This document shows positions 18,106 through 19,958 of a stretch of DNA of 21,213 nucleotides, piece after piece. The stretch is from a virus (taxonomy: Duplodnaviria; Heunggongvirae; Uroviricota; Caudoviricetes): positions 1 to 21,213 of the IMG/VR virus record IMGVR_UViG_2534681774_000019; one strand, written 5' to 3'. The notes under the pieces are model-generated. The model was not told where the DNA came from. It saw nothing but the letters and a program-made list of their open reading frames with translations, and did not search any database. How positions within the stretch are numbered: position 1 is the first letter of the stretch; the number at the start of each line of letters is the position of its first letter. The position numbers and the translations under genes were made by a program.

Positions 18106-19473
18106 ATGGCATTTAAACACTATGATGTTGTCAGGGCGGCGTCGCCGTCAGACCTTGCGGAAAAGCTGACACACAAACTGAAAGAGGGCTGGCAGCCATA
18201 CGGCGGACCGGTTGCCATTACGCCGTACACACTGATGCAGGCGGTGGCTATTGAAGGAGAGCCACAGGTCGGCCCTTCATCTGAGCCGGATTGGTACTAC
18301 GTCATCGTACTGGCCGGGCAGTCCAATGCCATGGCTTACGGTGAAGGGCTTCCGCTGCCGGATTCATACGATGCTCCGGATCCGCGCATTAAACAGCTGG
18401 CGCGCCGCAGTACAGTGACGCCGGGCGGGGCTGCCTGCAGATATAACGATATTATTCCGGCTGACCACTGTCTGCATGATGTGCAGGATATGAGTACGCT
18501 GAATCATCCGAGGGCTGACCTGAGCAAAGGGCAGTACGGCTGTGTCGGTCAGGGTTTACATATTGCCAAAAAACTGCTCCCGTATATCCCGAATAACGCG
18601 GGGATCCTGCTGGTACCATGCTGTCGTGGTGGTTCGGCATTTACCCAGGGCGCGGAGGGGACATTCAGCGAGTCCACGGGGGCCAGTCAGGATTCGGCAC
18701 GCTGGGGGGTGGGCAAGCCGTTATATCAGGATCTGATTTCCCGCACAAAAGCGGCATTGCAGAAAAATCCCAAAAACGTTCTGCTGGCCGTCTGCTGGAT
18801 GCAGGGTGAGTTTGACATGAGCGCCGCCACCCACGCACAGCAACCTGCGCTGTTTACAGCCATGCTGACACAGTTTCGTGCTGACCTCTCCGTGTTTAAC
18901 GCGCAGTGCCATGGTGGCAGTGCTGCAGATGTGCCGTGGGTTTGTGGTGACACGACGTATTACTGGAAAAATACATACGCTACCCAGTACGACACCGTGT
19001 ACGGCGGGTATAAAAACAGGGAGAGTGAGGGCGTTTATTTTGTGCCCTTCATGACAGACGGTAACGGCGTCAATACCGCCACTAACGCGTCGGCAGAAGA
19101 TCCGGATATTCCGGCATCAGGATATTACGGTGCGGCATCGAGAACGAATGGAAACCAGGTATCATCAAACCGCCCGACACATTTCAGTTCATGGGCGCGC
19201 AGGAGCATTATTCCGGATCGTCTGGCAACCGCTATTCTGAACGCAGCCGGGCGCACCTCAGCCTTCATCAGTGGTAAGGCACCGGAAATCAAACCCTCGC
19301 CCGGCGGCAACACGCCATCGGGTCCGTCTGCAGATACGTCCGTTCGCACAATCTCCCTGCTGCCGGCAGCCGGAGAGGCTGCTGCGCAGGGCTGGAGCAT
19401 TAAAGATGGCGGAATTCAGTTGTCAGATGGTGTATTTAAGATCACCAAGCAGAGCATAAAACCTGGTCCCTGA
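18106..19473 (+). CDS. NanS-p-like sialate O-acetylesterase, N-terminal and catalytic part (DUF1737-like N-terminus plus SGNH/SASA esterase)
   Basis: ORF track 455 aa; RBS GGGAGGA; N-terminal MAFKHYDVVRAASPSDLAEKLTHKLKEGWQPYGG pattern; catalytic block YVIVLAGQSNAMAYGEG (GQSN serine motif). Confidence 0.7.
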   Translation: MAFKHYDVVRAASPSDLAEKLTHKLKEGWQPYGGPVAITPYTLMQAVAIEGEPQVGPSSEPDWYYVIVLAGQSNAMAYGEGLPLPDSYDAPDPRIKQLARRSTVTPGGAACRYNDIIPADHCLHDVQDMSTLNHPRADLSKGQYGCVGQGLHIAKKLLPYIPNNAGILLVPCCRGGSAFTQGAEGTFSESTGASQDSARWGVGKPLYQDLISRTKAALQKNPKNVLLAVCWMQGEFDMSAATHAQQPALFTAMLTQFRADLSVFNAQCHGGSAADVPWVCGDTTYYWKNTYATQYDTVYGGYKNRESEGVYFVPFMTDGNGVNTATNASAEDPDIPASGYYGAASRTNGNQVSSNRPTHFSSWARRSIIPDRLATAILNAAGRTSAFISGKAPEIKPSPGGNTPSGPSADTSVRTISLLPAAGEAAAQGWSIKDGGIQLSDGVFKITKQSIKPGP

Positions 19474-19481
19474 CGCATCCG

Positions 19482-19958
19482 GTGGATGACGCAATTACCC
19501 TGCTGACACAGGGCGGCAGACTGACCTGTAAGTTCCGCCTCTCAGGCGCACTGACCAACAATCAGTTCGGGCTGGGGATTTATCTGTATACCGATGTAGC
19601 GTTACCTGACGTCGTGGCGATGACCGGGACTGGTAACCCGTTCCTGATGTCGTTCTTCACCCAGACCACAGACGGCAAACTGAATCTGATGCATCACAAG
19701 AAAGCCGGAAACACAAAGTTGGGCGAGTTCGGGAATTACAGTAACGACTGGCAGACGCTGGAGCTGGTGTTCACCGCCGGCAGTGCCACGGTTACTCCGA
19801 AACTGAATGGAGTGGCTGGCCCGGCATTCCAGGTCATAAAAGACAGTCTGACACTGGGGCTGAATGCGCTGACGCTGACGGATATTACCAAAAATGCAGC
19901 GTATGGCGTTGAGATAGAAAGTCTGGTGCTGGAGATAAATGCACCGGCATCATCATAA
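19482..19958 (+). CDS. C-terminal beta-rich domain that appears to be the frameshifted continuation of the NanS-p-like gene
   Basis: ORF track 158 aa; its frame is open from 19440 and overlaps the end of the upstream ORF by 31 nt in a different frame. Confidence 0.45.

Follow-up and report, generated by a model that had tools for sequence, protein, structure and literature searches.

The window analysed here, a stretch of 21,213 nt, is the entire contig AIHE01000003.1 of the draft assembly of E. coli DEC12E (GCA_000250295.2, 2012). It contains a nanS-p-like sialate O-acetylesterase gene, which is preceded by three tRNA genes at 17368-17617 and followed by genes for a class II holin, a YdfR/DUF1327 protein and a lysozyme. 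This location is the standard nanS-p position in lambdoid prophages. No stx operon is present in this prophage. The tRNA-esterase-holin segment is repeated among prophages, with a median of 2 places per genome and a maximum of 15. The tRNA gene at 17368-17443 was called Met (CAT) by ARAGORN, as opposed to the tRNA-Ile given by RefSeq for the identical gene in relatives; it is probably of the lysidine-modified Ile2 type and would then belong to the ileZ-argN-argO cluster of Stx-type prophages. Toward the other end of the window, positions 1-787 and 1835-3785 are missing from the prophage of strain 12A, although the two prophages are otherwise 99.95% identical, which indicates that the early-left region is mosaic. 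At positions 1307-2593 of locus L003 (NZ_CP077479), the corresponding prophage of strain 12A adjoins mlrA (yehV), the integration site of Stx1 phages in O157:H7, and it carries no stx operon.

As deposited, the esterase gene is divided between two open reading frames (Table 1). The NCBI annotation of AIHE01000003.1 contains the same 455-aa and 158-aa calls (EHX54301.1 and EHX54302.1), and the split thus belongs to the deposited record rather than to the extraction of the window. Both ORFs had been described in an earlier, sequence-only reading of this DNA, and the end of the first at a TGA and the opening of the second frame from 19440 were confirmed. The second frame is bounded on its 5' side by a TAA at 19437-19439, is offset by 2 (that is, -1) relative to the 455-aa ORF and overlaps it across 19440-19473. 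The 455-aa ORF encodes DUF1737 (residues 3-49), the NanS-like SGNH/SASA core (residues 60-379), a linker and ~30 residues from the start of the C-terminal domain, and it ends in a tail of five out-of-frame codons (IKPGP). In the intact protein, the 158-aa ORF corresponds to residues 460-617, its GTG start being the codon of Val460. Among 153 billion gene positions, the exact 455-aa product was on record for one contig only, AIHE01000003.1.

Table 1. Coordinates, in the window, of the esterase gene, its lesion and the other private differences of the contig.
Feature	Position	Strand	Remarks
nanS-p-like sialate O-acetylesterase gene	18106..19958	+	1853 nt here vs 1854 nt in intact homologues
5' ORF, EHX54301.1, 455 aa	18106..19473	+	ATG start; TGA 19471-19473
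3' ORF, EHX54302.1, 158 aa	19482..19958	+	GTG start; matches Pfam DUF6645
Lectin-like jelly-roll region	19366..19943	+	6YP6 homology, residues 421-613; contains the frameshift
Lesion site, codon 451	19455..19457	+	single A at 19456 vs AA (AAT, Asn) in homologues
A4 run	19458..19461	+	normal length; not the frameshift site
Premature TGA	19471..19473	+	product of the frameshift
Window-private C->T, Pro329Ser, same gene	19090..19090	+	alignment with relatives
T7->T6, window-private, intergenic	4580..4585	+	alignment with relatives
T6->T5, window-private, intergenic	16123..16127	+	alignment with relatives
T8->T7 (17657) and adjacent AT->TA swap, window-private	17650..17660	+	U-tract of a terminator-like hairpin after the tRNA cluster
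T7->T6	20067..20072	+	U-tract of a terminator-like hairpin 3' of the esterase gene; private among close relatives

The assignment to the NanS-p-like esterases, with an N-terminal domain, a SASA esterase domain and a beta-rich C-terminal domain, held for all three domains. In the repaired protein, Pfam matched DUF1737 (PF08410) at residues 3-49 (E = 8.5e-16), SASA (PF03629) at residues 66-262 and DUF6645 at residues 467-577. The structure of NanS/YjhS (PDB 3PT5) aligned to residues 60-379 (E = 1.4e-122), including the conserved GQSN block, and that of the C-terminal domain of phi24B NanS-p (PDB 6YP6) aligned to residues 421-613 (E = 4e-30). Two features of NanS-p proteins, the N-terminal DUF1737 domain and the NanS-homologous SGNH/SASA domain, are present. 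The third, a jelly roll fused in frame, is absent as deposited, being encoded but out of frame from codon 451; it would be present if the missing base is an artefact. The frameshift lies ~30 residues into the jelly-roll domain, and the 158-aa ORF is without ~39 residues of the jelly-roll-homologous region, residues that are likely to be needed for folding.

Paralogues of nanS-p encode active Neu5,9Ac2 esterases, according to the literature summarised in PMC8065619, and their C-terminal domain is a lectin-like jelly roll that is thought to bind carbohydrates (PMC10462455). In phi24B, the DUF1737 domain has been reported to decorate capsid hexons, and the protein to be cut between domains after release (bioRxiv 10.64898/2026.04.10.717836). 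Once repaired, the present gene shares its three-domain architecture with NanS-p of 933W (z1466/L0105) and phi24B (vb_24B_21 = gp84; 6YP6). Its genomic position is likewise shared: the gene belongs to the late part of a lambdoid prophage and lies between an Ile/Arg/Arg tRNA cluster and a class II holin gene. Its DNA is 94-98% identical to the copies in Stx1a phages and phage 434. It differs from Stx-phage NanS-p in the absence of an stx operon upstream, in size (617 aa, as compared to 636-657 aa for the Stx-phage subtypes; PMC10462455) and, in its deposited form, in being split at codon 451. The chromosomal NanS (YjhS) of E. coli K-12 (3PT5) is homologous to the core, which is located wholly inside the 455-aa ORF. 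Unlike the prophage gene product, NanS lacks both DUF1737 and a C-terminal jelly roll, and its gene is not carried by a prophage. After repair, the present gene is an unremarkable NanS-p gene.

Alignments with homologues were used to locate the lesion. Over at least 80% of the esterase gene, 1,395 E. coli records could be aligned, and the best-matching homologues consist of one CDS of 1854 nt, annotated as 'SASA family carbohydrate esterase'. The gene in the window is one nucleotide shorter, consistent with the single-base frameshift that had been proposed. The sequence-only reading had placed this frameshift in an A4 run and had given the run's coordinates as 19457-19460, one position short of its actual location. 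Base-by-base alignment showed that homologues read GCAATAAAACC where the window reads GCATAAAACC, with a single A at 19456, and that the missing base is an A of the AA dinucleotide preceding the run. In the wider context, CAGAGCAATAAAACCTGG in homologues and CAGAGCATAAAACCTGG in the window, the alignment with nine relatives allowed one gap placement, and it is unambiguous because a T stands between the AA dinucleotide and the A4 run. A lesion within the A4 run was rejected on this basis, as the homologues keep A4 and their extra A precedes the T. The comparison of run length with homologues, which the earlier reading had recommended, showed that the run is not shortened in the window. Most aligned homologues have TAAAA at this position, and a few have TAAAT or TAAAG, a change of base without a change of length.

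The choice of repair site affects the predicted protein. Restoring the A at 19456 yields a protein of 617 aa (...KITKQSNKTWSLTHP..., ...KQSNKTWSL...), in agreement with the ~620 aa that had been expected, and this protein differs from WP_000874405.1 by P329S only. The repair suggested earlier, an additional A in the A4 run, also fuses the two ORFs mechanically into 617 aa (...KQSIKTW...), but it creates N451I at a position where the native residue is Asn, so that the product differs from WP_000874405.1 by both P329S and N451I.

We next consider how widely the deletion occurs. An allele-specific 40-mer was chosen as the query, since the identity bands of a 71-nt query cannot separate a gap from a mismatch. 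None of 5,426 complete E. coli genomes contained the deletion-specific 40-mer, whereas the repaired 41-mer, which served as the positive control, matched 4,021 places in 833 of these genomes. Similarly, with a 36/37-mer, the deletion and repaired patterns were found 0 and 9 times, respectively, in JGI/ENA metagenome contigs, and 2 and at least 120 times in IMG/VR. Neither pattern was found in the GTDB representative genomes, and that scan was hence without power. The same esterase allele is intact in eight other assemblies, both complete and Illumina-based; six of the eight, among them the Illumina-based Logan ERR302887 and AASDRF/AASDRG, are distinguished from the window by positions 19090 and 19456 alone.

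The other carriers of the deletion, both IMG/VR contigs, were limited to two early drafts, those of E. coli 97.0246 (AEZJ02) and 4.0522 (AEZU02). Their esterase alleles are 96.6% and 95.6% identical to that of the window, respectively; both are split into 455 + 157 residues, and both drafts also hold intact copies. The closest complete relative of the 97.0246 copy, OkiPb01713, has an intact copy without the deletion. These two sequences differ too much, and have indels in both directions, for an error profile to be drawn from them. Further 1-nt deletions outside homopolymers were found in other paralogues, one in the 97.0246 draft and one in a third draft of the same accession series, AFAI02, and neither was seen in any other aligned locus. 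The two loci concerned (AFAI02000040 and AEZJ02000027) show a 455 + 157 split that arises from different upstream deletions, GG->G near window position 19303 and loss of a lone T near 19339, from which the shifted frame runs to the same TGA.

Five additional loci (L013-L016 and L019), from single-contig or long-read-style assemblies, contain different 1-nt indels within window positions 19440-19470. These indels are at or beside a Dcm motif (CCTGG, 19462-19466) and a Dam motif (GATC, 19440-19443), and because of them public protein sets again list the 157-aa C-terminal ORF. Dcm and Dam motifs are contexts of systematic nanopore base-calling errors in E. coli.

Phase variation and separate expression of the C-terminal domain had been raised as explanations of the split, and the site and census data bear directly on both. 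A functional two-ORF arrangement might operate as a phase switch, through programmed -1 frameshifting, or slippage during transcription, on A_AAA (19458-19461), or through coupled translation of the C-terminal domain. The 3' ORF is indeed in the -1 frame, and if tRNA-Lys re-paired in that frame on A_AAA, the N451I fusion would result, so that a slip at this candidate site would restore a full-length protein carrying that substitution. The TGA at 19471 and the GTG at 19482, between which coupling would run, are separated by 8 nt, and the full-length phi24B protein is naturally separated into domains by proteolysis. Against such an arrangement, the site has no hypermutable or other simple-sequence tract, but just A2 and A4. 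No length variation was present at the 4,021 homologous places, and no tract-length polymorphism was detected in the 5,426 complete genomes. Neither an X_XXY_YYZ heptamer nor a Shine-Dalgarno-like stimulator was found at the site; of the elements of a programmed -1 frameshift there is only A_AAA, and the ATA codon in the P site cannot re-pair. The downstream RNA structure was insignificant relative to shuffled sequence (z = -0.53). The GTG at 19482 has no Shine-Dalgarno sequence upstream, and an ORF beginning there starts ~39 residues inside the jelly roll. Finally, the two-ORF layout is conserved in no complete genome; homologues are single ORFs, and none that is naturally two genes at this site was found among the complete genomes. 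We therefore regard a functional two-ORF arrangement as extremely unlikely.

To place the missing base in context, the remainder of the contig was compared with its relatives. The closest complete genome was that of the O111:H2 strain 12A, which matched window positions 3786-21213 (17.4 kb) at 99.95%. The window differed from 12A by four substitutions, two of which constitute an adjacent AT->TA swap, and by five single-base gaps. In each case it is the window that lacks the base, four times within a T6-T8 run. The count omits a sixth gap, at 792, which is on a mosaic junction and adds one codon to an ead/Ea22-like ORF at 784-1272. At 20067, a more distant relative likewise has T6; at the other differing sites, all relatives examined agree with 12A and not with the window. 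Moreover, over 5.3-5.6 kb, the same seven differences, and only these, set the window apart from each of three assemblies, that of strain 12A, the IMG isolate contig L028 and the NCTC assembly L153. Seven of the nine private differences are within 16123-20067, in the tRNA-esterase-holin segment. The hairpins with contracted U-tracts, at 17632-17660 and 20041-20072, are GC-rich. Transposition of two adjacent bases, as in the AT->TA swap, is more typical of base-calling trouble than of mutation. Among runs of at least 6 bases, four of nine intergenic ones and none of 22 coding ones were changed. Selection acting on real mutations could give this distribution, but so could the mostly intergenic location of the longest runs, and it does not settle the matter.

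These results lead us to conclude that the split quite probably reflects a base-calling or consensus error in the 2012 draft, by which one A was dropped from GCAATAAAACC, and that it probably is not a property of the strain. The deletion removes one A of a dinucleotide, is private on this allele, lies in a contig whose single-base gaps are all deletions and is restricted to three early drafts, observations from which we infer a technical cause. Weak consensus in a segment that has several paralogous copies per genome would be a plausible route to the loss of the A. The DEC genome drafts are probably 454/Illumina hybrids assembled with the Celera Assembler, a point that was not used as evidence. 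The gene of the strain would then be an ordinary intact esterase of the NanS-p type, 617 aa in length, in a non-Stx lambdoid prophage. Its product is predicted to comprise DUF1737, an SGNH esterase that removes 9-O-acetyl groups from sialic acid, and a lectin-like jelly roll.

Of the explanations that had been offered, sequencing error is best supported, but not in the form of an error at a homopolymer run. Against it, a change of AA to A is not a classical long-homopolymer error, and the gene contains a second private change, P329S. In addition, natural decay of nanS-p occurs in complete genomes. Frameshifted pseudogenes of the same family with small indels, annotated as 'DUF6645 domain-containing protein, frameshifted', are present in complete E. 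coli genomes (E2865, EL389_RS04505; isolate 30602_6#35, ABGU53_RS10580). The lesions are elsewhere in the gene, a 14-nt duplication near codon 77 (L005) and CCC->CC near codon 57 (L008), and none is at 19456.

The points just listed lend some weight to a genuine recent inactivating mutation in DEC12E, with one redundant nanS-p paralogue starting to decay. Copies of nanS-p that are frameshifted or interrupted by IS elements are annotated in complete genomes, redundancy is high (up to 15 matching places per genome), and the second private change in the same gene is a missense change. Under a genuine mutation, the strain would make a 455-aa protein with DUF1737 and the complete catalytic domain but without the jelly roll, and the 158-aa remnant would either escape translation or fail to fold. 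Nothing is lost from the catalytic region (residues 60-379), which aligns with NanS (3PT5) over its full length. Since the chromosomal NanS is without both accessory domains, deacetylation of free Neu5,9Ac2 could persist in the truncated form. [quoted passage not shown] Against a genuine mutation, the same contig contains four further private single-base deletions and the AT->TA swap, and three independent assemblies share exactly seven differences from the window. The identical deletion is found on two diverged alleles in early drafts only, as compared to none among the 4,021 places in complete genomes. On balance, a genuine mutation in DEC12E is possible and deserves some weight, but we consider it unlikely.

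The presence of the same deletion in DEC12E, 97.0246 and 4.0522 could also mean that it is real and either recurrent or copied by short-patch gene conversion among nanS-p paralogues, giving three backgrounds. An identical deletion outside a repeat, on three allelic backgrounds and in early drafts only, is better explained by a technical origin than by recurrent mutation or gene conversion, and we consider a real, shared deletion to be very unlikely. If it were nevertheless real and recurrent or converted, an esterase without the jelly-roll module would circulate naturally, and occasional -1 slippage on A_AAA might then produce full-length protein with N451I.

Returning to the consensus error that we favor, there is nothing new at this locus, and the split is best filed as a probable assembly artefact. 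Good descriptions already exist of this gene family, of its domains and of where it lies in the genome. The finding has little biological weight: artefact or not, it comes down to a single defective copy of a prophage gene that genomes carry in several copies. Annotators should read EHX54301.1 and EHX54302.1 as two pieces of one 617-aa protein. In this contig and in similar early drafts, single-base deletions mimic pseudogenes, particularly in segments that are repeated among prophages.
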